NCBI GenBank assembly: GCA_002256025.1
Contig: NKIB01014732.1
Coordinates: 1-41,097, forward strand
Direction of reading: 5' to 3'
Source: Asterionella formosa
Taxonomy: Eukaryota
DNA: 41,097 nucleotides
The position numbers were made by a program, and so were the translations under genes. Under the pieces are notes generated by a model. It was not told the DNA's origin, did not search any database, and worked only from the letters and a program-made list of their open reading frames with translations. Positions 3,999 to 41,097 of this stretch are shown in pieces. The number at the start of each line of letters is the position of its first letter. Positions within the stretch are counted from its first letter, which is position 1.

Positions 3999-4525
3999 GG
4001 TTGTTAAAGTAAAAGTGATTTCAAGAGGTATTTCTTTTTACCTTTTGCTTCTAGCATACAATGTTGAATTCTTGGTTTGTTGTGAGTATAATTACCGGTA
4101 CCAGGTGCTTCGTTGAAGCAATGATGTATACAGAGTACGATTTTCATCATTCGCATGGTGATATGAAGACTCCTGTGTACCGTTAACGGTTATTCTCCAA
4201 TTGCATATATTTTCAGATACTTCGTATGTTTAGAAGTTTTGATAAGGCAAAAATTGATTCGTGCGGGGTCAATCCAAAAGCTGAGCGAACAAGAAGGACA
4301 AGACGCACAGCAGTGCGAAGCCGGAAACCAGAGACCTGCAGGTAATAGGAAATTTAGCTCTGTTCTCCTTATAGTAGACCGTCTTCTAGGGCAACTTCAC
4401 TACCGGTAGAGGGGGGGGGACATGAGGTTTTCCTCGTGTTCCTTCGACGTATGGACTGAGTAAAATAATATCTATGGTTGAAACAGACAAGTCAAATGAA
4501 TCTTGTTTTTATTTCCAAAATCAGC

Positions 4526-5296: not shown

Positions 5297-5516
5297 TCCA
5301 TTACCTAGCACCTGGTACATGGTAGCCTTACTTTTTTCCCTTATGTACCTATTCCTGGTAGTTGAACAAGGATGGTAAAATTGGAGTTCCTCATGGCACA
5401 CTTGTATAACACTGCTGCAGACCTTGCCAGTATTGTTTGTGTGTTCGTTTTAGAGGAGTCTGGTACATTGTAATAGGAAATGATCACAACGGACCTTGCC
5501 CATAGTATTTAATTAA

Positions 5517-6671
5517 GCTTGCGGCCCCGGCTTAACCCAAGTTTGGAGAAAATATCGCTAGGGTTGTAAAAACGGCGTGAAACAGGGAGTTTCCAACTAT
5601 GAATTCCCATGATTCGAGTGTCCATTTGAATATTTGAATAAAATAGGAATCGGCGCCAGATTGACAGAGTTCCATTTCAAGCAAACTAAAATGATTTTTA
5701 AATGTCAATACAATATTTTCATTACTGAATGTAGACATGATTCTGCTTAACGACAAACACATATATAAAGGAGGAGTACGCTGACATGTACGCTCATGGT
5801 TCGTGTAGAAACGTTATATTGAATCTACGCTGCTGTGTGTAGGTTTAATAAAAGTCAGTACGGTACCAAGTACCGAAGTCCCATAGTACCAGTGTACAGA
5901 CCAGATAGTCCATAATCTCGGTTCATGACGTTTGAAGACAGGGTGAAACTAGAACCGGTGTAACGGTACTGATTTTGCCTGCTGGCATGGTACGTCTAAT
6001 GCATATGGTTCAAGTGTGGCTGGCGTGATTTTACAAGACCGGAGTACTTCAGCCAATCTGGAGCAGGTAAGTAAATTCAATTCAACCAATCAGAATATGT
6101 GTAATGACGCGGCTACGTACCCTGGAGTCTTTTGGGACTGAGAGTTAAGCAGCAAAACATACCTACGCAAGACTCTAAGTCTACGAGAACGTTTTGCACA
6201 TACAAATTCCGATTCCAATATTTTGGCGACCGTTGAACAACCCGATCGGGTCGACTTTTTGGAGGAGGATTGCTCTACATCTGCGGGGTTTCATCAAGAT
6301 TAAAGTAGATAGCCGTGTACCCTATAACGTCAGGAGTTAACTTCTGGAGAGAAACTGCAGTCGTAGATTTTTAGAAAAGCTTTGTAGCCCCTTTTTCTTG
6401 TTGACTATTTTTGCAATAGTTACGATTCTACGATACATAACTGCAGTTTCTCTCCAGAAATGAGGTCCTTGCCATATCCGAAGATAGAACATACCCCTAA
6501 GTCGACCCATGAGTGTATCTACTAATCATGTGCAAAGTGGTTGTCTTGGTGAAAGCTAATTTTACCTTTAGCTATTCTATGCACTTGTACGTAATGTGTG
6601 GATGAAGGTACATCAGAGAATTATTCTGGGAAGAAACGGACCTCGCAATGTGTGACTGCGGGGCCGCAACC
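5517..6671. mobile_element. Non-autonomous TIR element with TAA target-site duplication (Harbinger/Tourist-like)
   Basis: GCTTGCGGCCCCG (5517-5529) and CGGGGCCGCAACC (6659-6671) are 12/13 inverted repeats, each flanked by TAA (5514-5516, 6672-6674). No long ORF inside. Confidence 0.65.
6336..6459. other. Conserved hairpin, copy 1
   Basis: Perfect 20-bp inverted repeat TTCTGGAGAGAAACTGCAGT (6342-6361) / ACTGCAGTTTCTCTCCAGAA (6440-6459). Homologous to 22955-23089. Confidence 0.8.
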
Positions 6672-8306
6672 TAAATTAATTATAGGCTGGTACTCTACAT
6701 AGCATCATCATCATTATCATTCTTGTGCCCAATAATTAAATCATGCCGAAATCAAGGAAAACCGCTATGATGAAGGTTGCCTCTGCATGGACAGTTGGAT
6801 GTGGATGTAACTCTTTCTGATCTTCAACTTCTCACACCTCTTTCTTCTTTCTTACTTACAGTTTCTCATGAAAGAAAATTCAAGATTCAATGAAGAATTG
6901 AGGTCGCTGTCAAGGTTGTTTTGCCGGCGCTTTTCTTGGTATGATGTTGATTGTTATTTAATTTCTGCCTTGCCTTTTGTTCATTGCAATCACTCACACA
7001 AGTTGTCTAGCTTTTTTATCAGAAACTAAGAGCTTTTTGACAGCTCCAATATAAAATAAGGTAAGTACCAAGATGAGTGGTCTGTGCGCTTTGCCATTGT
7101 TATCGATTTCGCAACTTTAACATAGTTATCTCTATACTTGTACTTGCAGGAATCAATGCTTCTCATACAACAATCATCCATGACCACAGATAGTAGTGAA
7201 ACAGCAGCTAATGCTTTGCTTCAAGACAATGTTGTCTTATAATGATTGAAGGTTGCCAACGCAAACAAGCAGAGCAGTGATTCTAAATCAGCATTCTATT
7301 CAACTATTTTTGCAACTACTATTGGTTGCAATAGCTAGTCAAAAAATGGAAATATTGTTTGAATAGATATGACCACAACAACATTAATATTGCAATACCA
7401 TAGCCATTTTGCTTTTATTTTTCATAGAAATTATATTTGATTGCTGCGAACAATAATTGTGGTCGTTGATATAGAAAGTATATGATCAGGCATACAAAAA
7501 TATTGTAAGTTCACCCCAAAATTTTTGTCGGTTTTTCAAGAAGCAAATTTATGGAAGTTGTGGACACTATTTTAGTTCACCCCTATCATAGATATTCTAT
7601 GATGCATCACATTTTATATTTGATGTCATACCATTAAATTATGCATGCACATAGCCCAATTAACCATAGTGGCCTACCCAAATTTTTAATTTGGATGAAC
7701 ACATTTGACTAGCTTTTCTTCTGGTGGTTGTACCAAAAAATCGGTGATGTAGATGTAATATTTTTCTATCTACCAGGTTTGGCCAAGTGAACACTGTTGC
7801 TGTTGTCAAAATGGTACTCTGGTGGACAACTGAACAATGATTTTACTATCACCAAAAAAACAATGTGGTCTCCCTACCAGATCTGTCAATCCTTGCTTAA
7901 AGTAGCTCCAACCATCATCTCAATCACCTACCGGTACACCACATCATAACCCATATTACATCTATATCTGAATGTAGCATCCCACAAACCAGTGAGAGAA
8001 TCATAGAAGATCTAACCACACCTTAAATCGGAAGCTGACATGGATAGATTGCAAAGCTTATCTTCCACCACAGCGCCACACAAATGCCACAACTGCCGAT
8101 CTTTCGAAGGAATCTTACCATTTCGAAATTTAAAAAAGAGAACCCGGAAATCCCATATTCTCACAATATGATGATTATATTTTTTGTCAGAGCGTTGTCA
8201 ATTATGATGTGAGTAGCAATCAACAACGAGAAAACGGTTCCCTGCTCTCATAAAGTCCAGTGTCTACACCGGCATCAAACTAGCGGCAGACTAGGTCTAG
8301 GTAACA

Positions 8307-9263
8307 ATGACAGACCAAGACGTGGTCGAATTCTTTGGGCCCTTGTTGTTGGAGCGAAAGATGGACAATGTCAACATTAAATTGGGTCGTGCCATGATGT
8401 TGCAGCAACTCGCAGCTGACAGCGACGATGATGATGTTACTATTCCCACTACGTTTCACTTCATTTGGTTGGGTGTTAACGAGATGCCATTCAAGGAAGC
8501 AGCAGAATCGTCGAATTGGAATGAACCCATGATATCATGGAAGGTACAACATGAGGAATTCAATATTACACTTTGGACTGACAGTGACGACGCCATGTAC
8601 AAGCAATGGTACAATAAGCGAGCCTTTTTGTACGCGATGGATCATGGCATGTATGGCATGGCATCTGATATAATGAGATTGGAGATTCTATTTAAGATCG
8701 GCGGTGTCTATGTGGACATTGATTACTATTGCATCGACTCAATATGGGATCTATTGCGAGGCAAGGACTTTGTGTGTGGAGCTAGCAATACTGGATGCAT
8801 AGAACTCAACAATGGATTCATGGCGGCGATTTCAGGGCATGGAGTCGTGAAAGAAATGATGGAGAGCATCCATGGCTGGTTTGACTTGTACGAGGCTCAA
8901 TCGCAGCAAATGGCCTTGACAAAATCGTTTTTGGATGCAACGACGGCAGCCGCTTTAGATCAAGCATGGCAACTTTCTCATAATGATATCATCGACCAAA
9001 CTGGACCAGGATTATTAACACGAACCATTTCTAGCGTATTGCTGACTGGTGAGGCCACATGCACCAACACACGTCGAATCGCCATCCTCCATCATAAAGT
9101 ATTGCACCCAGTACCCAACTCGGTTCGGGGAGCCGCGGCTAAGTTAGCAATGGATGCATATATTGTACCAGGTATGACTAAGGCCATTCACTTATGGGGA
9201 TGCAGTTGGCAAAATAATCACGAGGAATCAAGAGGTGAAAAGGAACGAGCCAATATACTATAG
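8307..9263 (+). CDS. Glycosyltransferase family 32-like (DXD sugar-binding; OCH1/SUR1-like)
   Basis: IPTTFHFIWLG, SW...LWTD, ASDIMRLEILFKIGGVYVDID, LNNGFMA, TGPGLLT and AIHLWGCSW are the standard GT32 motif series. Confidence 0.88.
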   Translation: MTDQDVVEFFGPLLLERKMDNVNIKLGRAMMLQQLAADSDDDDVTIPTTFHFIWLGVNEMPFKEAAESSNWNEPMISWKVQHEEFNITLWTDSDDAMYKQWYNKRAFLYAMDHGMYGMASDIMRLEILFKIGGVYVDIDYYCIDSIWDLLRGKDFVCGASNTGCIELNNGFMAAISGHGVVKEMMESIHGWFDLYEAQSQQMALTKSFLDATTAAALDQAWQLSHNDIIDQTGPGLLTRTISSVLLTGEATCTNTRRIAILHHKVLHPVPNSVRGAAAKLAMDAYIVPGMTKAIHLWGCSWQNNHEESRGEKERANIL

Positions 9264-9499
9264 GACGACAAATAGGCACGATTTTTAAAATCGCACTGAC
9301 TTCATCGAACCGTTAGAAGCTCTCTACAGGAATTTCCAGGCGATCATAGTTGTCCAAGGTTATCAGAATTGTACGACAGACTAGCGTTTACACGACTATA
9401 CGAAGGACAGCCTGTTCATTGTTTAGGCCCTAATTGTTGAGTAGCGCTAAAGTGTCAACAGGAGTATTTCAGTCGTTGCACCATCCTGGCCTTGATGAC

Positions 9500-10453
9500 T
9501 TATTCGTTGTCAGCGAAATAACTGTGCCCTTGCTCTTCATACAACTGCTCTGCGTAGTAATATATCTCCATGTCCAGTTTATTAATCTCGAGTAGTCTCT
9601 TCCATTCAGGAGAATCATGTTCCACATGAGGATGTTTGTGCTGATTCGAACCATGACTGACCAAACGATTTATACAGTAGTCCCAATCGCGGTGTTCAGT
9701 CCACCCAAAGGACATGCCAAAGCGTTGCAACGAATCCTTCATTTTTTTATCAAATCCAATAATCATTTTGGAGAGAACGGCCTTGGCTTCCTCCAGATCG
9801 TCTGCAGTTACATATGACTTTCCCACAAGGAATCCTACCATCCAATTTCGCTCGGCGAAATCAGACTGAGCGAATGCCATTATGGTCATGTTTGCCCATT
9901 CTGGATGGTAGTACTGCTTTTCCCAGTAAGCGTCCTGCAAATAGTAAAACAAGCTCACCGCTCTAGCGACAGGGTGTCTCAACAAGGTGAAGAGAGCTGC
10001 AGGGTGGTCTGGGGTAAATAACGCCGTCGTGGATTCGTGTAAATATGAGGTGAAGACAACGTCTGCAGGTTGGACGTTTGCAAACCCCAATTGCTGAGCG
10101 TGTAGAATACCTGGTATTGTTGTCGTGTCGACGTTGACATAGTTTCTTCCGTCTACATGTACTGTTTCGAGCTCTGTGTCGTCGTCATGGCCACCTAGAA
10201 TGCCAACTTCAGCCGCGACGATGTAATGTAGGCAATCTGCCACCAGATCATGCACCGTGGTACCTCCAGCCTTGGGTACGTGCCAAAATACAGGCGTAGC
10301 CTTTCTCCTGCCATGGTCGTTGATTTCAGCCACATTGGAGATGGCAGCAAGACGCCGCCGCGAGGAACGGCTTCTTGGCAAACGTGAAACATCCGTCGAA
10401 CATGCCCTTGAAAGAAGGAGCGCGACGTATACTAGACCTTGTCGCAACTTCAT
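9500..10453 (-). CDS. Golgi-type sulfotransferase ST1 (canonical PAPS loop, intronless)
   Basis: 5'-PSB FWHVPKAGGTT; 3'-PB TLLRHPVARAVSLFYY; C-terminal NKLDMEIY. Signal/anchor MKLRQGLVYVALLLS starts at 10453; an in-frame upstream ATG is also possible. Confidence 0.88.
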   Translation of the reverse strand: MKLRQGLVYVALLLSRACSTDVSRLPRSRSSRRRLAAISNVAEINDHGRRKATPVFWHVPKAGGTTVHDLVADCLHYIVAAEVGILGGHDDDTELETVHVDGRNYVNVDTTTIPGILHAQQLGFANVQPADVVFTSYLHESTTALFTPDHPAALFTLLRHPVARAVSLFYYLQDAYWEKQYYHPEWANMTIMAFAQSDFAERNWMVGFLVGKSYVTADDLEEAKAVLSKMIIGFDKKMKDSLQRFGMSFGWTEHRDWDYCINRLVSHGSNQHKHPHVEHDSPEWKRLLEINKLDMEIYYYAEQLYEEQGHSYFADNE

Positions 10454-11423
10454 GTTCACTCTTTTTCCCCTCGTGGGAGTCTCGATTACCGGTAGGAGGA
10501 TGTATTGCGCTTGATGGTTCCCATGTCGAAACTGGGTGGAATCGTCCGGGTCGAAAGTCATCAGCCTCAAAAACATCAATGAAGCAAGAACAGATCGATA
10601 TTCCGGTGGGTGGCTCGGACAATTTGCTACCAAATGTATCTACCGGTAGCTGTAGTTCCTTGTACCTGGTACCAGGTATCAGGTAGGAGAAGACATAACA
10701 ACAGTCCTTATTATGTATGTGTAGGTACCGGTATATCATGCATGCCCTATGTATGTGTATGATGCAGAAGTAGCCACACGTCATTTACACAGGTACATTG
10801 TGTAGTAGAACAACATGAGCAATACTTTGGTTTTACCGGTACCAGGTACATAGTATCGTGGTACCACCAGTTTTAGGTGCTGGGTATTCGAGTTCACGGC
10901 GATACATAGTTATAGTTTTAAATTCCGTACCTGGTACCAGGTACCACATCAAAGCACCAAATCATTCTACTGGGAGTAAAAGGCACCAGGTATAAGGTGT
11001 GGGTACCGGTAAGTATTTAGTCACCCATAGACTCAATTGCTCATATAGATGCATGTACCTGTACATTCTTTTGTATGGTGTACGCATAATGTAATATGGT
11101 ACCAGGTAGCGATAAATACACATAGGTTCCACGAAGATTCCGGTAATCATCCAGTAGCTATATTTGTCAACAGCGACGACGAAAGCTTTTTTGCGTTCGG
11201 ACATCACCGACTGGTCACTTGGGCAATTTGACAGAACAACGAACACGGTTTCGGTAGAATCCTGCAGAGAGGGAGACATAGGTTTGCAGAGCGGCCATAT
11301 TATCCCATCATGACGGTCGTAATTTTTCCTGACAAATCTACCGGAATATGCACCAACAGTTATCCTGTGCTTTCCAAATCTCCTTGCTGGCTCATTGTAT
11401 AACACTGTGTTATTCTTACCATC

Positions 11424-12751
11424 ATGAGCTCTGAAATGAAAGATCCTCCCACCGCCACGACGAAACCAGTCGACGAAGAAGTCGGCTGGGAAGATTGGGA
11501 CGAAGATCAGCGACGGGCGCTGGGAAAATCCCATCTGAGAGTTATCGCATCACTCAAAGAATACACGGAGAGAAATGCTCGTCCACAACAAATTGTCCCT
11601 CTTGAAATTGATCTCCAGAAAGGAGGAAGTGAAAGTCGAAGGAAGGGGTACTTGAACAAAAGGTGTCTAGTGATGTGTTCAGTAGGCCTCCTCGCTGTCG
11701 CTGGAATTACCTCTGCCATTATTCTCCTACCACATCACGGTGCACTTCCGCCGCAGGAGGTTTTGTTTCCAAATTACTCAGTATCTGGAAGCATGTTAGG
11801 GCTGATCGGTCACCGTAAGTGGTCGCCACCTCAATATAAAGACTTGCTTTCAGACGTTGACCTGCCCATCAACAATGTGCAACCACTCTTATGGACAATG
11901 CCACGAAGCGGTAGCCTCTGCGTTATGGATATTCTAAGTTACTGCGTCAAGCTTACTTTGTCGAATGGAGCTGGAAGAGGACACGATGAAGAGGAAGTAA
12001 GTTGACTTTAATGGGAGGCGATTGCTGCTATTTCTCAAACATTGTTCCTAACCTATTGTTCCTATTGTTTCAGTCACTTACCATCTTTACTGAGAAAGAA
12101 AACATTGCCCACTTTGCCAACGTTGACACTACGACTTTTCAGGGGCTAAAGCGTGCTGAACGCTTAGGTTTGATAGAAAGCGGACTGATCCAGGTCCTGG
12201 CTACTCCTCACCTTCCCGAAGCATCTAACCTGTTTCAAAACAAGGCTAAGACTGGGCGTGTCTTTGCCATTTTCAGAGATCCAGTCAGCCGAGCGGTCTC
12301 TGATTATCATTTTCTAAGGAGTCTTGACTTGGACGATCCATTGGCTCTTCCTGAAGTGATGTCTCTGAGCCAATTCGTCGAATCTGAACATCTAAGGACC
12401 AATGTTCTTACGAAGACTCTAGCCAACATTGTTGACAACACATTTGTCACTGAAGTCCATGTCATGTTTGCCAAACAAGTTCTTCAAGAAAAGATATTGG
12501 TAGGTTTGGCTGAGAACTTTGATGAGTCGTTGAACAGGTTCTTGGCGTACTTTGGTTGGGTGCTACATGATTCCGTCTGTGCCGCCAATTTCAAGGCAGC
12601 TAGAGATACTAGGGAGTCTCATCCACACCTGAATGACGAGCAAGAGGAGTATCACACATTGCGAGATCGCAACTGGGCTGACGTTGAAGTTTATGAGTTC
12701 GCCAAACTTGTGTTCGCGGGACAAAAGCAAATTAAGATTAGGAGTGACTAA
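11424..12751 (+). CDS. Sulfotransferase-like ST2 (type II membrane, variant PAPS loop); exons 11424-11996, 12074-12751
   Basis: A GTAAGT...TTTCAG intron (11997-12073, phase 0) joins two ORFs in frame (416 aa). TM CLVMCSVGLLAVAGITSAIILL; LWTMPRSGSLC; NVDTTT; FRDPVSRAVSDY; NWADVEVY. Confidence 0.85.
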
Positions 12752-13293
12752 AGCTGCAATGCTTTCTTCCTGAAAAGGTTACCAGGTACTTTCAAACATC
12801 TGTATTTTAGCCGATAAATTTTACCTATACTATGAAATCCTTCAGAATAGTTGGTCATTCGATCAACTGCCTTCCTGTCATTTGCCTACTTATTAGAAAT
12901 GCGCCCAATCGTCGTAGCATTGCTTATGCGATGATGTTCACAAAAAATCGAGGTGGGCAAATGGGACTGCTATATGAGATCTTCATGTATTAGCAATTAT
13001 ACATAAACTCTTTTTTTACATTTCTTGCATCACAACCTACGGTCATGATTTGTAGTATTACCTGTATGGCACCCCCTACAATAGTATATACTCTGCTATA
13101 GACAACAAACTTATAGATCGTTATAGTTGACACGATTTGAATTCGATCCACAACTTTTGTAGCCTCGTTGTGTTGAAGTTGACTCCTTACTTTGAACGCA
13201 GAGGAGCTAAAGATAAAGAACTAGTGGCGATAGCAAGGCAGTGGATGTAATTTACTCATTTCAATTGTGGTTCAAATCAAGGTTGAGGATACT

Positions 13294-15253
13294 TTACGGC
13301 ATATCAGCAAAGAGTTCAGTTCCTTGCTGCAAAAAGAGCAGAGTGGCATACTTGTAAAGCTTCATATCCAATTTGTTTTGCCAAATTAACAAGGACCAAG
13401 CTTGGGTACCTTCTTTCACCTTCCCCTTTGCCGATTCATTTGTTCTGTAATCCCCAACCAAAAAACGAGTTCTACAGGCAGTTTGTTTTTTTGTGTTCTC
13501 TGTATACTTCCATCCGAAGTAAAACTCAAACCGCCTCAAAGACTCTTCCTTTTGCTCCAAGAGGCCAATTAAAACCTTCTCTTTCAGAACCTTCTTGGCC
13601 AGTTCAAATTCTACTTCACCTACTTCGCCAGACATGTGATCTGTCAGCATTCGAACCATCCAGTTATTCTCAACATGTTTACTTTTGCTATAATCGTCCA
13701 AGGACATATCCACAATGGCAGGGACTTTGTGACTCTTGAGAAAGTAAAACATGGAAGCTGCCCGTTCAATGGGATGCCGAATCATAGCAAACGTCCTTCC
13801 ACGGTGAGACGACGAGAATAGACCAGACGCGGCTTGAAGGCGAGGCGAAACAATAAGCTGGGCCATCCCTGATTCAGCCAATCCAAGTGCTTTTGCTTCC
13901 GAAATTCCTGATATAGTTGTTGTATCGACGTTGACATACTTGTGATCGTAGATGGTAACGATTTCTAATTTCTATGGAAACAAGGCAGGACTAATAGTCA
14001 GTGTGGACTGATTGAATGTGAAAATTTTCAAGAAAAATCTCACTTACCGGAACAGGCTCGCCTTCCTTTCTTTGTGTAGCACCAACCTCACTTGCCACTA
14101 CTAAATCCTTGCAGTTTGATAAAATATTCTTCACCATACCACCTCCCGATCTTGGAATATACCACAACAAGGGGGTATCCTTATGTGATGGGTCCTTGGT
14201 GTAGATTTCTGCGAGACCAGCTTGCACGGATAGGGACATGTACTTCTCCGGATCAGCTTTGTCGAATTTCTCGAGCGTATCTACCGGGGCATTTTCCTCT
14301 TTGAGGATAGGGATCTTGTCATCTTGTTCACTTCCCTTGGTCCTTAGTTCTTCTAAAGGTGTGACTACTTCGTCACGTTCCAAGTATAACTTGGGTTTGT
14401 CCATGTAGTCATCTTTCTTTGGTACTTCTGCTAGCTTCTTGGCTTGTTCAGATGGTTCACTCATTCTTCCAAGTAATTCGATATTCATGGGGCGATCTTC
14501 GCCTTCATCAAAGGCCCTGTATTGTTTCTTGGTAATCTTTGATTTTCGGAAGTGCTTTCGAGTAAGGCTATTGCTGGATTTAAGCATTGCAATCCACTGA
14601 AAGGCACCATAAAGAATACCAAATAGAAAAAACAAAACAATGGATGCTCGAAGGTGGACTTGAGGGCCCGCGCTGCTGCTTTTGCCAGTCGGTCGGCTAG
14701 GACGCCGAGATTGCAAGATGCGACTTTGACCGATTGCAGGAGTCACCAATGGACGATGCGCGCTAGGAGACTCGGTCTGAGTCTCGTCGTCGCCATCCAG
14801 CTTGGCTCCCAAGCCCAAGTTCTCGAGAATACCTCCAATACTTTCTCCAGACTTTTCACCGACACTGCCAGACATACGGGAGCTTGCTCCACTCGCCGTC
14901 GATCGGTTTCCAGATTTATAGGTTCGCCGCTGGCGATGAGACATCGCTTGCGGCTCAGAGGGATAAATGTAAACTGAATCAATGGGCCTACCAGTGTCCA
15001 CGGTCAATGAATCCATATCCCTCGGGATATTGGAATGGTTCCCCTTCTTGGCGGTGAGTCCACTTGGTCTAATCGTTCCCGGCATTTCAGCCCGAGGGGC
15101 GTTGGCCCTAACTTGCGACGATTTAACAATTGGAAATACTGACGAGAGAGCGCTGGATTCGGCCTCAGAATAATCGTCATTTTTCTGGAAATCGTCAACC
15201 AAGCCATCAACCAGTTCATCGCCGCTTTTAGGAAGCTTCCTCCTAAGGGACAT
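13294..15253 (-). CDS. Sulfotransferase-like ST3 (type II membrane, variant PAPS loop); exons 15253-14048, 13971-13294
   Basis: A GTAAGT...CCATAG intron (14047-13972, phase 0) gives 627 aa. TM IVLFFLFGILYGAFQWIAML; LWYIPRSGGGM; YVNVDTTT; IRHPIERAASMFYF; NKLDMKLY. Confidence 0.87.
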
Positions 15254-16463
15254 TTTCGCTAGATCAGATGTAGGTTGTTCTATTCGTACGATGTGACAGT
15301 TTGATTTTTGTCCTTTTCTGAATATATTAGCAGAACCGTGGCAAGAGGGAAGTGCTTATACGATGTGGATCCTTTCGGCGGGAAGGGAGAAGAGCCTTAT
15401 AGCCTATTCCCGAGTTAGATACTGGTGCACCTTCTGTTGCAAACAGTGGAGACATTTCTCGGTGTCCTGGTTTTTCTCGTGTCGTTAATGGTGGTCTTAG
15501 TGTGTTACCGTACTGGAGTACATATTAAAAAATATGTCATTATTTACTATTTATTGGTCTTTTAGAATTGTTTTATTCTATGGTGAGCTGCTTGTACGAT
15601 ACTGACTACCTCGTACCAGGTACCGGTACCTGGTAGTGGGAGTACCTGGAATAAGCTAGCAGAGAAATATTACAACGTGCCCCAGGTAAGCAAAGTCATT
15701 CAATAGTGAACAGGCACAGTATGGTGGAAATATGTATGACCAATACACACCGGAATGTATGTTGAACAACCCATGGATTTATACCGGGCAGCCAAGAGCT
15801 CCTGGCTGGTAACCACACAGCAGTAAAACCAACAGGGTATGAAATTAATTAAATAGCACACAATAGTAGAATAAAGCACCTACCGGTAGTGAATGTTTTT
15901 CTCTGTGTGCGGCAATGAATGGATTCGTCATGATTTGCGCTGCAGCTCTATATATCGTGATCCGTTTATCCTTTACTAGGTAGCACTAGATAGGCGTAGT
16001 ACTAGCTGCATAAGAATAAGGAATTTACTGGAAAGGTGATGCTAATATTTTAAGAACTACATTTGCCAACATTTGCACCTTTGATGCTCCTCCCCTTTGT
16101 CTCAACTGCTTTGCCTTCTTGTTTTCTTGCCGCATTTTACCAAAGCAGTAGAAGTGGTCATCATTCAATGGCTCGCTTTTGCTGCCCTTTCCTTCATCAT
16201 CATGTGAACATGTGAAGTATACCCAACATGTCAATTATACTGGTAAGACATCATTTTACAATACACAAGTACTTCACTAGTGCTATTCCTATTCGCTAAA
16301 AATTTGGGCACAAGATTTGACCATTTTAGGATTTGGTCGATGCAGTGGGAAAACTATGAAAAATTCGACTACTGGTAAAATAATCCTCGACCAAGTGATG
16401 TGTTAGTATACTTTCAACTGCAATTGGCTTTGGTATTTGGTCGATGCTGTGACGATGCTCTTA

Positions 16464-16605
16464 GCGTTTACTTCGGAGTAGGCTCGTCTGCACGTATGTC
16501 CTCGTGTGCTTTTGCCTTGCGTTTTATGCACAACTTCGATGTGCGGCTTATTGTTTGCGTTTACTTCGAAGCGTGCTCGTCTGCACGTATGCCCTCGTTT
16601 GCTTT
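16464..16605. repeat. ~50-bp direct repeat (period 93) in the ST3/ST4 divergent intergenic region
   Basis: GCGTTTACTTCGGAGTAGGCTCGTCTGCACGTATGTCCTCG (16464) versus GCGTTTACTTCGAAGCGTGCTCGTCTGCACGTATGCCCTCG (16557). Confidence 0.8.
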
Positions 16606-16920
16606 AACGGTACCTGCTACGGTACGTAGCATTGTGATACGTCTCACCAACAAAGCTACCCGGTACCTGGTACCAGTACCGGCATGGCTGATCACGGTAT
16701 GTACGAACGAGGGTGTGGCATCCTCTTGTGACTGTTCAGCTTTGCTTATACAAATAATATCATTTTCACGGAGGTCGCTAAATAGATCTGTAAACTATGT
16801 CTGCTTCTGTTAATATTTTTTGAACATGGGACACGACCTTATTACTACAGACGCTGCGACGAAAACTTTGCCGCTTCACAGTAGTTCTCGTCACCTCCAG
16901 TCAGTGAACCACATTAGGGC

Positions 16921-19062
16921 ATGCAGCTTTTCAGAAAGAATGCGATAGAAAAAGGTGACAGCGATGAAGAGAGTGGAGTGGTCTCAATGGAATTTGAACG
17001 AAATGGGGAAGGCCACAACTTCAACCTGGATGCTATCTTGAGCCATGACATTTGCTCCCTTGCGTCTACAGTGAACGATCGAACTGGAATATCTTCCCTA
17101 TTTAAGGGTGCTCATAGACGGAGAGCACAGGTTAGGGATGATCTGACAGTAGCGACCCCGAATAATCTGAGAAAGGCAATGACTCCGTCGTCGTTAGCAT
17201 CATGGGAGAATTCGCCTGTACAAATGCTGACACCAGCTCATATTCGCGGGTCTCGTAATTCTCTCCCGCAAAACCAGTTTATAGATTCCCTCGTGAAGAA
17301 TCTGCGTATACCCTTTTGTATTCTGCTTGTGTTGGTTTTCTGGGGTCCACTGTTCTTACAAGGCTCACGTTCAATAGAAGAAAGCCAGCCTCAAATATTT
17401 CAACAAGTTTTCTCACATCCTCTAAAATCACCAATATTGGATGACAAGAAAAAAAATGTGCAGGAAAAATTTGTAAAGCAAAATAACTCGGCAAGTATGG
17501 AAAACAATGTCGATCAAAGATCGCAAGGCTTGGCCGGTCTCAGTCAACCAGTCCTCACAGCACTTCTGGCACTTAAGGACCGAGAATATCTTCCTGACCA
17601 AAAAGAATTTGTAGAAACGGCAAGCAAAGAGTCTCCCCCAATGAAAAATGAACGGGTAGATGACTTCTCACTAGACCAACTCTCGAACGAAGCTAAAGAA
17701 AACCTCAAGATTGCGGGTATAAAGCGACAGCTACCTCATGCTTGGCAAATGGAGGCAAAACAATTAGATAAACAAAAGCATCATCAAGAGCAGCAAGAGT
17801 CGAAACAGGAACAGATCCATTCTCAACAACTCAAACTCATGCAGCAACAGCGTCTTATAGAACAACAACTTCTACAGGAAACCCAGGTTTTATCTGGTAA
17901 GAAAAAGCAGTTGGACTTGCAACACCAAGCGGCAGGAAAGGCCCAGAAACCAATCCTGCAAGTCTTTGGTAACTATAATCAAGTACAATACAAACAGAAA
18001 TCGAATGATTCGCAGTCACAATTATTCCAGCAGAATAAATTCCGCGAGATCGCACAATTGCGTCAACCAAACCCAACACAACATAAACAACCCGCCTCTT
18101 TAGGGAGCTATTACCATGGATTGGCACCCGAACTTGTTCCTGATATTCTTCACGAGAAATTTGCCGATATTTGGTCGCCTATATCCCCGCAGGAAGTTCC
18201 GCTTTTTTGGCACATACCGAAGAATGGCGGCACGACTGTCGCAGATATCTTAACACACTGTTTGGACCTCGTTAGCGCTTCAAATATTGGAGCAACTGAG
18301 GGTCACGGGATGGAGCCTACCCTACAAGTGAGGGTATACGCAGATAAGGGGAAATATGTCAATGTTAATGCAGCTACACCTGATGGGCTCGAAAGAGCAA
18401 AACAATTGGGTTTAGTATCGTCTGGATTGGTCGATGTAATTGTTACGCATAGACTTCACTTGGGGGCAAGTTTGTACGATTCACAACATCAGGCGAGAGT
18501 TTTCGCCATGTTTCGGCATCCAGTAAAACGAGCTACATCCATGTTTTATTATCTACAACGAGCTAAATGGGAGCCGACTTACGACCATTCACTTGCTGAC
18601 TTGACTCTGGAACAATACGCGGAGTCTGGAAAGGCTGAAGAGAATTGGGTCACGCGTTTTCTGATTCACGAGTACACCAACCACCTTACCGAGGATCATG
18701 TAACGATGGCCAAGGAAGTAATGAGACGAAAGGTCGTCGTCGGTCTTCTAGACAGATTTGGTGATTCGCTAAAAAGATTCGAGCTGTATTTTGACTGGTG
18801 GCGAGCGAAAATTAAGCCCGACGCAGAAGAGAAAATGCAATGCCAACAGGAACGAGCTTTAGCCTCGAAAAACCACCTTCACCATCCTGATCCTCCGGAA
18901 TCATCTGCAGCCTTTAAAAAACTTGCCAAGTTGAATTGGGCCGACATGCAGCTTTTTCAATATGCGATCGATCTATTTGAAGAGCAGCAAGCATTGGTCA
19001 GTGAGAAGGATGCCTCCCTCACAAATGACTATATACGAGGGCAGGAACTACGCATTCATTAG
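16921..19062 (+). CDS. Golgi-type sulfotransferase ST4 (canonical PAPS loop, Gln-rich stem, intronless)
   Basis: 713 aa; TM IPFCILLVLVFWGPLFL; Q-rich stem; FWHIPKNGGTT; FRHPVKRATSMFYY; NWADMQLF. Confidence 0.9.
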   Translation: MQLFRKNAIEKGDSDEESGVVSMEFERNGEGHNFNLDAILSHDICSLASTVNDRTGISSLFKGAHRRRAQVRDDLTVATPNNLRKAMTPSSLASWENSPVQMLTPAHIRGSRNSLPQNQFIDSLVKNLRIPFCILLVLVFWGPLFLQGSRSIEESQPQIFQQVFSHPLKSPILDDKKKNVQEKFVKQNNSASMENNVDQRSQGLAGLSQPVLTALLALKDREYLPDQKEFVETASKESPPMKNERVDDFSLDQLSNEAKENLKIAGIKRQLPHAWQMEAKQLDKQKHHQEQQESKQEQIHSQQLKLMQQQRLIEQQLLQETQVLSGKKKQLDLQHQAAGKAQKPILQVFGNYNQVQYKQKSNDSQSQLFQQNKFREIAQLRQPNPTQHKQPASLGSYYHGLAPELVPDILHEKFADIWSPISPQEVPLFWHIPKNGGTTVADILTHCLDLVSASNIGATEGHGMEPTLQVRVYADKGKYVNVNAATPDGLERAKQLGLVSSGLVDVIVTHRLHLGASLYDSQHQARVFAMFRHPVKRATSMFYYLQRAKWEPTYDHSLADLTLEQYAESGKAEENWVTRFLIHEYTNHLTEDHVTMAKEVMRRKVVVGLLDRFGDSLKRFELYFDWWRAKIKPDAEEKMQCQQERALASKNHLHHPDPPESSAAFKKLAKLNWADMQLFQYAIDLFEEQQALVSEKDASLTNDYIRGQELRIH

Positions 19063-19816
19063 GTTTCCCTTATAAGGTGATTGCATTCTATTTGAAATAG
19101 ACCCTGGAAATCTAAATGGGGAAAGCGGTTTTCACATCTTCGGGTCCTTCCCTTCAGGTTAGTAACAGAGATGGCCATCCTCCCTTTCAATTTTTGCTCA
19201 ACTCAATTCAACGCTGCAAATGGAATTTTTGATTTGTGGGCTTGTGAGCTCATTCGATGTCACCCCCCTACAAGCAACGCCTTTTTACTCAGGACGAGTA
19301 AAGTTTGGTAGCGTTAAGGGACTGCAATAAGCACATTAATTTTCAACACTGCATTTTAAATACAGAGAAATGACATCGCCGCGTGCAAACTTTTCCCCTC
19401 GACTTGTATTTGACTAACGATGTATACGTTCCATTTTCTCTTTCCTGCTATGTAGGATCACTTTTATTAGCGTCTTGTTGATATTTCCCATTGCATTCTT
19501 CCTGATTAACCTTTGTGTCACTTTTAATCGTCGAAGCGCTACAACATTAATAATGAGGCGTACAATTAATGATGACATGTGCCCCCATACTTTGCTATTA
19601 TATTGCATTTATAAAGTTATAAGTATTTAGTAAACGTCAGCCACAATGGAGAGAACAAGCAGCAAGCACCGCGACAACAGATTGTTTGCATTGACTCGCA
19701 CAATTGCATATATCTGATATCATAACTGAAAGGTCCAAAATCTGACTTGAGCCAGCTTGAGAAATACAAGATCTTGAACGTATAATTGTCCCAATTCTAT
19801 TCCTGAAACCAATTCC

Positions 19817-20870
19817 CTAAGCTTTAGTTGGTGCCTTCGTTGGAGTCTTGGTTCTAAAAACAGGCGAATGTGGGGTTGGCGCGACTGGACGACTGGTTGG
19901 TCGCCTGGTTGGGCGTCTTGTTGGACGCTTGGTTGTACCATTCGCAACGCAATAAGTTGGCTTGTATGAAGACATGACGCAAGTTTGATTTTTAATCCAT
20001 GATGCGTAGTTGCTCACCCGAGTAAATACAGTAGGTGTGCCGTACTTGGCGCATCCAAAGACAGCATATGAAACAATGCCGAGTTGAACATCATTTGCAG
20101 TGCTGCTTCCTTTCGTGATGAGTGGACCTCCAGAGTCCCCGTAACAAGTCCCCTTGAAAGTGTTGTATGCACACATCATCGAGGCGGCGTCAAGGTATTG
20201 GCCATATGTACCTTGACAGATTCCATGTTCCACGTCCGAGACAGCAACTTCGCGCAAAACATAATTGGTGGCGGTATTTGGTGCTTCTGAAGTCACACCG
20301 AATCCCATCACTGTCTCAAATGCGCCGGTTGCTGGCACTGCCGAGTTGAAATTCAATTTAATTGGGTTGATCGACCAAACGCCTGCTGCAAGCTTGACGA
20401 TCATAATATCATTTATGGCGGTGTAAGTAAGTTTATAATTTGGATGAGGAGTCACTGAAGCGATTTTCCGAGTGATGTATGTAGATCCGCTAGCAAACGT
20501 CGAAATGCCCACAGAAGCGGTACTGGTAGCTAGATTCACGATCGTCTTGTCGTAGCAGTGAGCAGCCGTTAAAACCAGGTCTTTGTGAATCAAAGTGCCC
20601 CCGCAGACGACGTCGTTTTTCCCATCGACAGAGTTAAAAAAAAGTAAGGTAAAATATGGATATCGCTCCGAGTCCACTGCTGTGCCCCCAATAATGAGTT
20701 CTCTTTCAATAGGCGAAGCTGCTCCCATCAACAAGGGAAGTGCTAACAAAAGGAGGGAAATGAATTGGTACTACATGAGGAGGAGAATAGGAGATTGGTT
20801 TTAGAACAAAGTAGCGATATTGCAAACGAATGATCTTGACGACCGCAACGCGGAAGACTTGGGAAATCAT
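19817..20870 (-). CDS. Secreted S1 (trypsin-fold) serine protease with PTRR/PTKA tail; 5' structure uncertain
   Basis: IIGG, CGGTLI, LTAAHC, DIMIVKL, CYGDSGGPL. Signal peptide YQFISLLLLALPLLMGAA. The start needs either a short first exon (20870-20844, intron 20843-20771) or is disrupted (ATG TAG at 20776-20771). Confidence 0.9.
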
Positions 20871-22150
20871 AGCTATGGAGATTCATTCACGATCGCTGTT
20901 GGATCATTCAGTCTCGGTTGAGGTGCTGTTTTGCTATGTGAATGGCTCGATATTCAATTCATGATGGGACAGTTGTGTCCACAACTTCACTTACACGCAT
21001 GGTTAGAGCTGATGAAACACAACGACAGGGATGTTGCTCCGCCTTTTGCGTTGTTCTGGTGGCCAAGAGTGCTGATGGTGTAGGATGACGCGTCATGGTT
21101 GCTGTTGTAGGCCTTAGGATTGCGGAGAGTTGAGAAAAGCAAAAAATAATGATGGCGTCGGAGTGGGCTGTTTGCGAAGGAGAGGCGATCGAGCCGAGCA
21201 GGACATTTACCTACCTTGTCATGTAGCATTCACTACGTAGTACCAGGTCCCTGGTACCTGGTAACAGATAACAGATACTCCGAGAACCTGGTATGGAGTA
21301 CCAGGTACAAGGTACCAGTAGAAGCGGCATCATTGGCAATTGGCACTGATCATTTTTTAGCTCCTCATTACCCGCATAATATATTCATTCTTGATGCCGC
21401 AATATATGCTTATGTCGGTACATACCTACATAAAAGAGTCTGCCTGCCTTCTTTGCCTGCACGTTACACACAAATATCATGAATATTACTCCGCACCTAG
21501 GTAACCTGGCACCCGGTAGCAGGGACCATAACCGTTAACTAGCGGAGTGTAGGCTACTGGCGTACCAGGTACTCAGGTTGTAGTGGCAGTACGACCGCTT
21601 GTCAATCGTGTGTTTGTGGTTAACAGGTAGTGTCATTCGTGTATACGTCGTATACCGGGGACGCTCACCGTCTCCGGGGTATCTGATCACCCCGTGACGG
21701 TACCTGGTACCAGGTACCAGGGACTCCATCGAGGGCGTCGTTGTGGGCTCATTCGTCAGAGATTTTCACCTTCTTGCTTCTGGTTCATACGACTCAATAA
21801 ATTTTAAAATTTTGAATGTTTCAATGATATATATTCATGCACACAAAAGAAGAAATGATATGCAGAGGCAGTAGGTATGCATGATACCGGTATCTTGCAC
21901 GATTCTTTTTCATCTCGCACATACATGCTAGGAGTACAGGTTATTATAAGGACGTAGACAATACCGAGAACGACAGTGGATTCACAAGAATGTAAATGAT
22001 TAGCCCGATCTTACGGTGCCCGAAATACGAAGATTGACTCAAACGGAGACCTGTTGGGCCTTTAATGATCATTTTTTTCCTTCATTACGCGGCTAAATAA
22101 CTCGCAAATCCCCCCGATTACGAAGATTAGCTAATCTTCGTTCGTCTGAA

Positions 22151-22938
22151 GATTTGGGGTGTCATCCCCGATATTTACCCAATCTTCGTGTTGGCTTTTG
22201 ATGAAGGATCTTCGTTTCCCAAAGATTATATAGTAATGCAGCATCGTCGGGCAAACGAAGATTGTCTCAACCAATCAGAATGTCGGAAACAATACATGAT
22301 CGTCATCTCATTTACTGATGATATACTATACCGGGTAGTTGATACTTCTATTATTAGTATTTTGTCATTATTATTGCATAGTATTATTATAATAATTTTC
22401 AGACAACTCTTCGATTTATTTCTGTAAAAGGATAGCACTCATGGCACGAAGTTAGTGTACTTTGACGTCAACAGCACTGTGGAAAAGCGGAGCAAAACAT
22501 CCCAGTTAGCAGTAGAGATTGTCACTTAAATCATCAAGCTCATCATTGTGACAATCTTTGGTCTATATGAGCAGTTTTGTCTAGCTGCATCATGATGAAA
22601 CTACTTCTATATGACGTGTCTACCTCGAAACATACCAGCAGTAAAACTCCGAAAAAAATTATTGTTACTTCGCGATTTTCAACTTCTTCATCTTTCAGCC
22701 AATTTTAAAAGTCATGATAATCATATTAATAATTTGCAATAATAATGACAATAATACTAATAGAAGTATCGACTACAGGTACTATTTCATCAGTAAATGT
22801 GATGACGATTATACATTGTTTCCGCTATTCTGATTGGTGGAGACAATCTTCATTTGCCCGAAGCTTAATCTTTGGGAAACGAAGATTGTTCAAGAAAATA
22901 CGAAGATTGGGTCAAATATCGGGGATGACGCTAGAATC
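22151..22938. mobile_element. Foldback/long-inverted-repeat element, non-coding
   Basis: Diverged ~230-250 bp inverted arms (22151-22404 / 22711-22938), e.g. GTCATCCCCGATATTT / AAATATCGGGGATGAC and TCTTCGTTTCCCAAAGATT / AATCTTTGGGAAACGAAGA, around a ~300-bp spacer. Confidence 0.75.
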
Positions 22939-22954
22939 ACTCAGTATACACGTA

Positions 22955-23089
22955 GTTAACTTCTGGCGAGAAAGTGCAGAAAGGAACTTCGGTTATTTTA
23001 CTATGCCAAATGAACCGTTTGGCCCGGTAATTTCTGGTCTTTTCAGAATAGGAAAAAGCCGAACTTCCATTCTGCACTTTCTTGCCAGA
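22955..23089. other. Conserved hairpin, copy 2
   Basis: ~37-bp imperfect stem TCTGGCGAGAAAGTGCAGAAAGGAACTTCGG / CCGAACTTCCATTCTGCACTTTCTTGCCAGA with an inner GCCAAA...TTTGGC hairpin. Homologous to 6336-6459. Confidence 0.8.
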
Positions 23090-23109
23090 TCCTATGTCCT
23101 GATGATCTG

Positions 23110-24555: not shown

Positions 24556-25277
24556 TTGCTGTCATACGAAACAATTGTATGTAAATGACTTTTTGCTGGA
24601 ACAATCCTTGTATCCTTTCTGACTCTCTCTCTCTCATTCTTTATGCAACTCTTCATTTTTAAGATTGTCCTATTGGGCGACTCGGGCGTTGCAAAGTCTA
24701 ATCATGTCTTTCATTTTACAAAAAATGAATTCAACAAAGACTCGAAGTCAACCATCGGAGTTGAGTTTGCGACAAAGACTGTGCAGATTGAAGATAACAA
24801 ACTAGTCAAAGCACAGATCTGGGATACCGCCGGTCAAGAATGGTACCAAAGTATTGCTTTGTCATACTACAGAGGTGCTGTAGGTGCCGAATTAGTATAT
24901 GATGTTACAGACCGAAACTCATTCAACCATGTCCCGATGTGGTTCAAGGAAGTCAAAGAGAATACCGAAAAGGATTGCTTGATCATATCATGTTGATTGG
25001 AAATAAGACTGATTTGAATGACCAGCAAACCGTAACCATATTTGTCAGAGACGGACGATCCTTTGCTCGCAAGAATGGCCTTGCGTTCATGGAGATATCA
25101 GCCTTCAAGTCCACTGGAGTTGACAGAGATTTTCAAAGAATTTTCCAGGAAATTTACAAAACACAAATGAAGAAGCAAATTAAGTCAGCCAACGCGAAGG
25201 GAGAGGAATTGGAGCATGGTATGGGAGGGCAATTTCAAGCTGGCCATGGTCAAGCAATTACATTATCATACCGGTAG
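24556..25277 (+). pseudogene. RAB11: Rab11-family GTPase pseudogene
   Basis: FKIVLLGDSGVAKSN, SKSTIGVEFATK, KAQIWDTAGQE, YYRGAVGA, GNKTDL. Frameshift from an ATCAT duplication (24982-24991), damaged P-loop and switch II, no C-terminal Cys, and an intron remnant (GTATGT at ~24577) with a lost acceptor. Confidence 0.88.
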
Positions 25278-25998
25278 GCTACAAGTATTACCGGTACTGG
25301 TACCAATACCTGGTAACTGGTACCGGTACCATACCTGGTACCTGGTACCAGTTCACACAATGCATATAATGATTGTACTACATAAAATCTGCTACTTCAT
25401 ACGCACCTCATGGAATTGTAGGTGCCATACTACGTCACAGATGAGCATGGTACTTGAGCATGCATGGGCGGTAGCTATAGCACGTATCATGATGTGTTGT
25501 TGCCTACAGCATAAATACCGGTACATGCATTACCGCTATGTAAATGATCTACCAGTAGTGGACTGCTTAGACTAGCATGAACCCGGCATTTCAAATCTGT
25601 GGGAAAAATCGTCCACATCGCTTTTCCGTCCAGTTCTTGGTGAGGGAAATGAGTGTGTACCCGGTACACGAAGAAGCAAAGCAAATTATCGCAAATTGCA
25701 GGTACTTGGTACCAGGTACCAAGTACCCCTACCAGGTACCTGGTACCTGGTACCTGGTAGCAAAAATGAGCACAGGCATAGATGGTACTGTTTCTCCTCC
25801 GAAAAATCCACAAATTATTATTATGTATGATTAGTTCAGTACCTGGTAGTCTACTGTAGTATATGAATGTATGAAGGGAGCACAAGTAAGTAACAAGATC
25901 CATCGTTTGTTATAAATGTTCATCTACCGGTGTTAGTTGGTTCTTGACCGTTTTGCAATCAATTGCTCCAACCTCAGCTTCGCATAGTTCACTCGACC

Positions 25999-40106: not shown

Positions 40107-41097
40107 TTTTCTTTGTTTATTGATGGCTTCGATGGGAATCGATTATTGAACTTGATTTGTGTTTGTATTGTGTTCAAGGCTGTCAATAAGGGATCGCAAA
40201 CAAGTTGCAAAATCTGCCACAAGGTTGCGCACTTTTTCATAGATATTTGTACATACATAAATATAAATTGAGTGCAAGCGTTGTGGACACATCAATAGAA
40301 ACGCCTATACTTTAGATACTAAATACAAGCAGTCACAAACTTCGAAGAAGAGGAAATGCGTAATTAGATATACATATATTATATAGATTAAGCGAGCGAT
40401 GCGTTGGATTTGAAATCCGACATCGGTCCTACTCCCATCGGATTTGCACAAACATAACGGTAGTAGACCTAATATGACAATGTGCATACCGGTATTAGTT
40501 GGTTCGTGTACCGGTACATTGACACATAAAAAATTAATCCACGAAGTCTACCGTACCAGGTATTGTAAGTCCGTATGGACGAGGTCGCCGATACATACCG
40601 GGTAGTGTCTAGCTTAAATAAGTCATATAAAGACATGGATGTATTTTATATAATTTGAGTAGACAACTCGGTGACACGATACCTGTGTATTACACCAGTA
40701 TTATAGACAGCTCTAAATATCTACCGGTATGCACCTTTCGACAAGACATCTCATCAGACTACCGTATGTATATTTCCTACCGTACACGAGTACCGGTAGT
40801 CTACCGGCAAATATATTCACCATAGAGTATTGCGAAAAATTGCCAAACTACGCTAGCTAAAAGTGTGACGATGAATTGATTTTTTATTACCGGTAAGGTT
40901 GCTGCATTTGAACCCCTAGCTCGAGGTAGGGTTAATAAAATAATATTGAGTCAGACTAATCAAACACCTACTCTCCACATATAAATCAAATATGTATAAC
41001 GCTCAACGGAGCTTTCACCAATACACACCCTTTCCATATGCTTACATACAGTCTTCGGACAAAGTAGGGGGGGGGGGTGTAGGTCCACGCTATATTT

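Follow-up and report, generated by a model that had tools for sequence, protein, structure and literature searches.

The transposons closest to those described here are the Kol0-like two-gene Kolobok elements (PMC9587614), which have been reported in a diatom and which share with our elements the TTAA target, 5'-RR...YY-3' termini, short terminal inverted repeats, a DDE transposase and a small second ORF, here of probable KolX type. KolX, the second ORF of the Kol0 group, is described as similar to the P2X7 cytoplasmic ballast. Our elements differ from those of PMC9587614 in the placement of the second ORF, which precedes the transposase in L133 and L195, and in carrying a long structure-conserved internal hairpin, which the main text of that paper does not mention (0 occurrences of hairpin, stem or secondary structure). 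A hairpin within a cut-and-paste DNA transposon is known from the rice CACTA transposons, whose miR820 is a proven microRNA with the host target OsDRM2 (PMC3459959). The Kolobok hairpin, in contrast, is a candidate source of small RNA, with no target in the DNA-methyltransferase and Argonaute loci tested, and its stem sequence is wholly different between lineages. The omega RNA of Fanzor/TnpB (PMC13565253) is likewise structured and non-coding, lies close to the right end of a DDE transposon and is kept in non-autonomous copies, but the scaffold of the Fanzor omega RNA runs over the element end, whereas the Kolobok hairpin stops 150-251 nt inside. A Fanzor omega RNA was rejected for our elements, since they have no nuclease gene and the position is wrong; the Fanzor/TnpB-like domain PF07282 had 0 matches in the assembly of this incomplete genome, where absence is no proof. 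Multi-base compensatory stem changes such as those found here are described for hairpins maintained by template switching (PMC8794818), a process that explains the origin of the changes but not the persistence of a stem at one place across distant families.

The window analyzed is a stretch of 41,097 nucleotides from Asterionella formosa (contig NKIB01014732.1). It contains two hairpins, at 6342-6459 and 22962-23089, which were shown with near certainty to be one internal feature of Kolobok DNA transposons, which follows the transposase stop codon and precedes the right terminal repeat. The features of the window are listed below.

5513..5516, plus strand: left TTAA target-site duplication of the family-A element
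5517..6671, plus strand: non-autonomous Kolobok element of family A, about 1.16 kb, an internal deletion derivative; first bases GG decayed to GC, ends in CC
6067..6140, plus strand: remnant of the last transposase intron, by homology to L133:4176-4247 (donor GT at 6067, end approximate); contains a CCAAT-type motif at 6081
6141..6312, plus strand: remnant of the last, acidic transposase exon (start approximate)
6342..6459, no strand assigned: hairpin copy 1 (family A), with two small hairpins in the loop
6460..6560, no strand assigned: gap-free conserved block 3' of the hairpin, with a CCAAT box on the minus strand; families A and B identical at 69/100 positions, no codon periodicity
6657..6675, plus strand: right terminal inverted repeat, followed by the TTAA duplication decayed to TAAA (6672-6675)
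22003..22936, no strand assigned: unrelated foldback that contains a nested 307-nt repeat and happens to adjoin copy 2
22954..23106, plus strand: isolated, decayed 153-nt fragment of a family-B Kolobok with hairpin copy 2 at 22962-23089; 83-84% identity to the B consensuses
40894..41095, minus strand: third Kolobok piece, a family-B right end that the contig end cuts just short of its hairpin

The elements of copy 1 and copy 2 belong to sister families, A and B, of a single Kolobok group, which could be aligned at both ends and over about 700 nt around the hairpin. The initial annotation had placed the copies in otherwise different elements, one flanked by TAA, and had considered the end or origin of an undescribed mobile-element family. 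None of this was upheld: the families are alignable beyond the hairpin, insertion duplicated TTAA, both families are Kolobok, and the hairpin sits inside the element, some 212 nt short of its right end. A match to a known transposon family, named in advance as a finding against novelty, removes the novelty of the element, which belongs to a known superfamily, but not that of the hairpin, which we did not find described. An upstream motif noted initially for both copies lies outside any common module, since 6081 is in the last transposase intron and 22267 in the unrelated foldback repeat. That foldback was joined to the hairpin in none of the 40 scored candidates besides this window.

Families A and B are present in hundreds of copies in the genome, and the right end of family A alone gave 139 genome matches. 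TTAA flanked both sides in 17 of the 22 complete elements and one side only in four; three of the misses were contig ends or decay. The same duplication was found at L195, L180, L183 and L191. Termini were GG...CC in both families and in L195, which fits the Kolobok pattern 5'-RR...YY-3' with short terminal inverted repeats. The 794-aa transposase ORF of L133 matched PF20700 in a Pfam search (E 5.4e-43), a family 'Mutator-like' by Pfam naming. SYD, DDD, DPSH and INE motifs were read in this ORF, with residue roles that we take from general knowledge, and they give the DDD/E and C/DxxH signature of Kolobok. The second ORF of L133 had no Pfam match and that of L152 matched PF20478 under the cut-off (E 0.0086); a profile built for this analysis tied both to 14 small ORFs of the same set, and the second ORFs of L133 and L155 were 37% identical over 84 aa. 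L133 is filled by its two ORFs. Features of KolobokP were absent from it: its left and right ends differ in sequence, excluding long terminal direct repeats, and no nuclease domain, such as the His-Me finger of KolobokP, was found in its ORFs.

Copies that carry a transposase have the hairpin after it. One near-complete autonomous element has a hairpin that begins about 50 nt past the stop codon and leaves about 213 nt to the right end. The stop codon of the family-A element is TAA (6301-6303), three codons ahead of a TAG (6310-6312) that aligns with the family-B stop. Among non-autonomous copies, 24/26 of family B and 21/27 of family A retain the hairpin. The two copies match at 92% over 26 nt (6335-6360 and 22954-22979), and the two inverted repeats and both paired base changes reported initially were confirmed. 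Folding z scores for copy 1 and copy 2 were -7.6 and -10.1 on the plus strand and -7.4 and -6.8 on the minus strand, and 0/200 shuffles were as stable. The family-A consensus stem has 31 bp, 7 nt of the 5' inner arm being deleted in copy 1. The interiors had been called unrelated in sequence. This goes too far, as they align almost gap-free; in the inner 14 bp of each arm A and B are only 4/14 identical, yet these pair in both families. The GTCCT shared after the hairpin is partly chance, the B consensus having ATCCT or ATACT there. Two G-U pairs are indeed present in copy 2; they depart from a B consensus that is Watson-Crick at these places and stand beside A-A and C-C mismatches, and are therefore without value as strand evidence.

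Several other readings of the region were rejected. An ORF through or after the hairpin is contradicted by stops in six frames and by A/B differences of 33/32/33 by codon position. The arms resemble the terminal repeats no more than shuffles do, except for one 10/12 match in copy 1 (reached by 1/30 shuffles). A flip-flop loop is excluded by the right ends, with 95 forward loops, one reversed and 15 unscored, so that orientation is fixed in 95/96 scored. A hammerhead ribozyme was not upheld, as the CUGANGA-like word occurs 3' of the hairpin in family B only and is absent from A. A link to telomeres or telomerase RNA was dismissed because, of the B copies shown, copy 2 alone is followed by a TTAGGG run.

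In seven A/B sequences, 16 of 31 stem pairs were altered on both sides, and 94.8% of 210 cells paired, compared with 35-47% in slid controls. Of these double changes, 11 of 16 involve a transversion type that has no G-U intermediate. The double changes fall in adjacent triplets, as would be expected of template switching without any RNA function. After insertion, private changes per site were equal in stem and flanks (A, 0.014 and 0.010-0.016; B, 0.012 and 0.009-0.010), and 84 of the 87 private stem changes were one-sided and two compensated. Shared variants of family B, however, occupied 4/68 stem columns and 94/320 other columns (p=1.2e-5), and none of the 30 pairs listed carried a shared compensated change in the B subfamilies, where 26-37% of the remaining columns varied. 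The stem of family A was no less variable than its flanks, with shared variants in 20/62 columns, 12 of them in compensated pairs. As inserted copies decay arm by arm and family-B lineages conserve the stem, it is well supported that pairing rather than sequence is maintained in the lineages that replicate, and that copies decay after insertion. Probably the arms were re-matched by template switching and the paired state was then retained by selection.

Similarly placed hairpins were detected in four further lineages (L153, L210, L148 and L194/L195/L206), with a core transposase identity of only 34-46%. Their sequences are unrelated to those of A/B and they lie 150-251 nt from the right end. 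The A/B pattern is repeated between L195 and L206, where the outer stem is conserved and the inner stem replaced yet paired, with almost gap-free spacing. The stem of L153 has only 14 bp, which is short for a Dicer substrate. In a quick tree, in which L181 still carries the label HP although it was later scored hairpin-negative, hairpin size and position persist across terminal branches of 1.1-1.4 changes per site. The module was thus rightly described as structure-conserved, and the 16/31 double changes and the distant hairpins support this more strongly than two copies could. Within the hairpin-bearing clade L181, L155 and L156 showed no hairpin: L181 fell from z -5.5 with 12 shuffles to z -2.6 with 200, and L156 (z -7.6) was not counted as it is a GU-rich simple repeat. 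L193 (z -6.7) was not counted either, lying within its second ORF. The sister clade is without the hairpin. Where located in hairpin-bearing elements, the second ORF lies on the same strand as the transposase in L133 and on the opposite strand in L195; nine loci with a convergent second ORF downstream had no such hairpin. No relative was found in viral contigs.

One contig of RNA run X5 shows that the transposase is transcribed and its message spliced as far as the last exon; L133:4176-4247, the homologue of 6067-6140, is spliced in this run. No RNA contig demonstrates a transcript across the hairpin. Run X1 had coverage in each of the 30 bins and peaked at the two ends, as expected of DNA, the intron was retained in runs X2 and X3, and none of these runs indicates strand or transcript ends. 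A fold-back contig in run X2 probably reflects misassembly of the repeat. Folding was better on the minus strand in B2, L195, L206 and L148, better on the plus strand in L210 and L153, and much the same on either strand in copy 1; the alignment of the A and B consensuses speaks for plus. G-U pairs were rejected as a strand indicator because they are inconsistent across lineages. The best small-RNA target matches (15-16/21) equalled those of shuffles in six partial loci, including four DNA-methyltransferase loci and Argonaute, and antisense matches to the genes or body of the element were not above shuffled controls. Rfam gave no match at either copy and, at six related loci, two sub-threshold matches only, the better being MIR9481 at 36 of 130 bits. 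An Argonaute-type gene is present in the genome. In another diatom, most small RNAs are reported to be 25-30 nt long and to map to transposons (PMC4247016).

We estimate a probability of roughly 0.45 that the stem is read as RNA and its duplex cut by the host double-stranded-RNA machinery, setting expression of the element. The stem would be carried either by the transposase transcript, at its 3' end, or by a transcript running inward from the right end; a 25-50 bp duplex would then be cut by machinery of Dicer type, the conserved stem base and flanks would fix the site of cutting or binding, and cutting would set the element's expression. Hairpin retention in transposase-less copies fits a DNA-level need at least as well as an RNA function. 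It is rather doubtful, but conceivable, that the stem adopts its fold in single-stranded or cruciform DNA, at a constant spacing from the right end, and to the same degree that it is bound there by a protein (transposase, the small second protein or one of the host) in excision, gap repair or copy-number gain. A nearly fixed right-end distance within lineage pairs (212/213 and 151/153 nt), the almost gap-free A/B alignment from stop to end (about 55% identity, with only 38/94 identical in the last 94 nt ahead of the terminal repeat) and the inconsistent G-U strand agree with such a signal, as do L268, in which two right ends meet as mirror images at the base of the stem, and L270, with an inverted loop, which show arms engaging in DNA rearrangement. 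However, the short elements L242, L254 and L226, each seen once, have both ends without a whole hairpin, the sister clade lacks it altogether, and arms resembled element-end motifs better than 2/30 shuffles in only 1/10 comparisons. Long loops disfavour cruciform extrusion, which is therefore unlikely with loops of 45-87 nt.

The triplet-adjacent multi-base compensations and many transversion-type swaps are the signature given in PMC8794818 and could mean that a functionless inverted repeat arose once in the clade ancestor and was kept matched by arm-to-arm copying. Hairpin-less copies, together with L181, L155 and L156, would agree with this. We regard it as unlikely, because such copying is rare in inserted copies (2/87), because under copying alone compensated changes should accrue at close to the neutral rate whereas the B subfamilies share none in 30 pairs, and because size and position outlast 1.1-1.4 changes per site. 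Slightly more unlikely still is that the hairpin acts as RNA in forming the 3' end of the transposase message, terminating it or stabilising it, a function that would be required in elements without a convergent second gene downstream. The upstream second ORFs of L133 and L195 and the nine hairpin-less convergent loci suggest it, but the complete sister-clade elements L180, L183 and L191 have neither a convergent ORF found nor a hairpin, and the hairpin lies anywhere from about 30 to 270 nt away from the stop. Two RNA runs of low depth have coverage that stops ahead of the hairpin or inside it, but at different places and in contigs, which cannot show an end.

We tentatively consider it possible that an algal Kolobok clade carries its own shape-conserved structured non-coding RNA where sister lineages have a convergent second gene, and that a small RNA or protein binding tunes silencing or transposition. 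If true, eukaryotic cut-and-paste transposons would have a third kind of RNA module, in addition to the Fanzor scaffold and miR820. The subfamily set is a clean natural case of triplet-wide compensation, useful to separate template switching from selection. Cut-and-paste transposons are thought to require little beyond their ends and a transposase. A stem-loop of 120-160 nt kept by shape at the same place in five distant Kolobok lineages points to an unrecognised requirement, which may be a regulatory RNA or a folded-DNA signal.

Both hairpin stretches and their inverted arms were present in the window as initially annotated; the hairpins span 6342-6459 (copy 1) and 22962-23089 (copy 2). Folded on either strand, both copies gave z-scores of -6.8 to -10.1, with none of 200 shuffles as stable, and neither matched Rfam. 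Genome-wide search identified many further copies, and both hairpins are repeats. DNA search of the Asterionella formosa genome returned 383 (copy 1) and 620 (copy 2) first-look candidates, with identities of 85-91% and 82-86%, respectively, among the 40 scored for each. The exact two-arm pattern had 406 genome matches with both strands counted (control, 0), and the right ends of the host elements had 139 (family A) and 311 (family B).

Copy 1 lies inside a 1.16-kb family A element bounded by TTAA-GG ... CC-TTAA, and the elements related to copy 2 (family B) measure 1.06-1.24 kb and have ends of this type. The flanking duplication, previously given as TAA, is TTAA, which was found on both sides of 17 of the 22 complete elements. 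The family is Kolobok, a type of transposon defined by TTAA duplication together with RR...YY ends and reported from a diatom (PMC9587614); the gene content of the host here likewise suggests a diatom. The two copies had been assigned to otherwise different elements; A and B are in fact alignable for 240 nt from the left end and 700 nt from the right end, and their hairpins coincide in position. The upstream CCAAT-type motif described as common to both regions belongs to the transposase intron at 6081 and to a foldback repeat at 22267. Copy 2 amounts to a scrap of just 153 nt that shares 83-84% identity with the B consensuses, with the unrelated foldback on one side and a short TTAGGG run on the other. 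Both window copies are decaying relics. At L003, L030, L033, L248 and L261, Kolobok elements adjoin with one TTAA common to the neighbours, which suggests that newer copies inserted into the target duplication flanking older ones.

The foldback (22003-22936) is multi-copy, and a different 307-nt repeat is nested in it at 22400-22706. Elsewhere in the window, a 180-nt, partly self-inverted repeat (1124-1301) is 90% identical to L061:4166-4347, and about five related ORFs sharing an FWH.PK.GG motif cluster at 9500-19062, presumably resembling sulfotransferase-like genes. A small GTPase-like sequence across two frames (24589-25277), which we take to be Rab11-like by its motifs, is probably a pseudogene. 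GGTACC/TACCTGG micro-repeats are dense at 10650-10950, 21230-21735 and 25290-25760, and likewise in the middle of non-autonomous Kolobok copies.

The transposase at locus L032 stops just 5' of the hairpin. Its transposase piece had 151 genome matches, and the hairpin was located 3' of it in many copies having sufficient downstream DNA. The layout is displayed by L133, a near-complete family B element from a metagenome with 99% identity to L225 of the A. formosa genome; its intron was skipped at GT..AG in one contig of RNA run X5.

Features of L133 and KolX-like ORFs of related loci
L133, 1131-1625, + strand: small KolX-like ORF, upstream, same strand
L133, main ORF: 794 aa, PF20700 (E 5e-43)
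L133, intron: 72 nt
L133, last exon, acidic: ends at 4401
L133, 4455-4577: hairpin
L133, 4790: right end
L195, 739-1311, - strand: KolX-like ORF, upstream, opposite strand
L155, 3477-3770, - strand: KolX-like ORF, downstream convergent

The placement of the small KolX-like ORF thus varies within one clade. Convergent second ORFs of up to about 400 aa occur in L152, L187, L193, L201, L203, L204 and L207; they have a long, conserved N-terminal part of unknown family fused to a KolX-like tail (weak PF20478 match).

In a hand-picked set of seven sequences from A and B, both sides were changed in 16 of the 31 stem pairs, and pairing was kept in 94.8% of 210 cells. Slid controls, preferred to a shuffle control that kinship of the sequences alone can beat, gave 35-47%. 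The main A and B consensuses were identical at 14-15 of the outer 17 bp and at 4 of the inner 14 bp, and both were paired. In family A, two adjacent-triplet swaps are mirrored on the opposite arm, all four combinations being present. Of the 16 double changes between and within A and B, 11 were transversion-type swaps. The triplet and transversion-type swaps fit template switching as the route, as described for compensatory multi-base stem changes in PMC8794818. Across 49 family A and 59 family B copies, chosen by hairpin similarity or right end with 74% identity required, so that very decayed copies are missing, single-copy changes were equally frequent in stem and flanks, and those in the stem were one-sided in 84 of 87 cases; therefore, copies decay once inserted, and one arm is rarely copied from the other in them. 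In family A, variants common to at least four copies occupied 20 of 62 stem columns, of which 12 belonged to compensated pairs. In family B they occupied 4 of 68 stem columns versus 94 of 320 other columns (p=1.2e-5), and stem conservation there needs selection besides template switching.

Metagenome scanning detected 115 transposase loci, of which the best 80 were retrieved; 36 of these had sufficient downstream DNA for folding. Long stems 3' of the transposase were detected in L133, L194/L195, L206, L210, L148 and L153, with total lengths of 82-160 nt, arms of 14-53 bp, distances of 150-251 nt to the right end or contig end, and z-scores of -5.4 to -14 where 200 shuffles were used. Hairpin sequences were unrelated from lineage to lineage, and the core transposases shared 34-46% identity with the query. 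Between L195 (complete, 4.6 kb, TTAA on both sides) and L206 the outer stem is kept and the inner stem exchanged yet paired, with a single gap in the loop, repeating the A/B pattern. All hairpin bearers fell into one group of 17 (SH-aLRT 99) in a quick, midpoint-rooted tree of 38 rows with long branches. Within this group L181, L155 and L156 had no hairpin, and 5-7 rows end before one could show. The other group (21 rows) had none outside the coding region; its three complete elements gave z-scores of -0.7 to -3.2, versus -11.8 for L133 and -13.8 for L195. The second ORF was convergent downstream in nine loci, all without the hairpin, and upstream in L133 and L195. A second, 24-bp hairpin lies within the transposase coding tail at L134:3290-3385 and at the same place in L148.

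As to function, we tentatively favor a putative stem RNA that the silencing machinery would process as a duplex (probability about 0.45). A cis signal acting as folded DNA is less probable, a neutral hairpin is improbable, and a 3'-end or stability element is slightly less probable still.

The stem matched neither the element's own genes nor six partial silencing-gene loci. Comparison of the stem with the element's ends gave no match, one of ten comparisons being better than all but one of 30 shuffles. Loop orientation was constant, except in one mirrored element with two right ends and one inverted-loop scrap.

Both arms were present in most non-autonomous copies (24 of 26 in family B and 21 of 27 in family A among those with sufficient DNA), contig ends having cut 4 of 30 and 2 of 29, respectively; three short elements with both ends had partly or wholly lost the hairpin. 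The 100 nt 3' of the hairpin align without gaps between A and B, at 69% identity, and no coding signal was found in them.

Rearranged copies were also observed. L268 (G000:C9251:646-1195) is a 549-nt element of two family A right ends mirrored at the hairpin base, with TTAA on both sides and halves unlike at several places, as if produced by fold-back copying at the stem. In L270 the loop is inverted relative to its own right end.

No description of such a hairpin was found in literature on Kolobok and hairpin, subterminal, diatom or compensatory transposon hairpins, as far as the available text goes; a mention in Repbase, in subscription papers or in the supplements of PMC9587614 is possible. 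The element type is already known, and the hairpin is a real, shape-conserved internal feature of one Kolobok clade.
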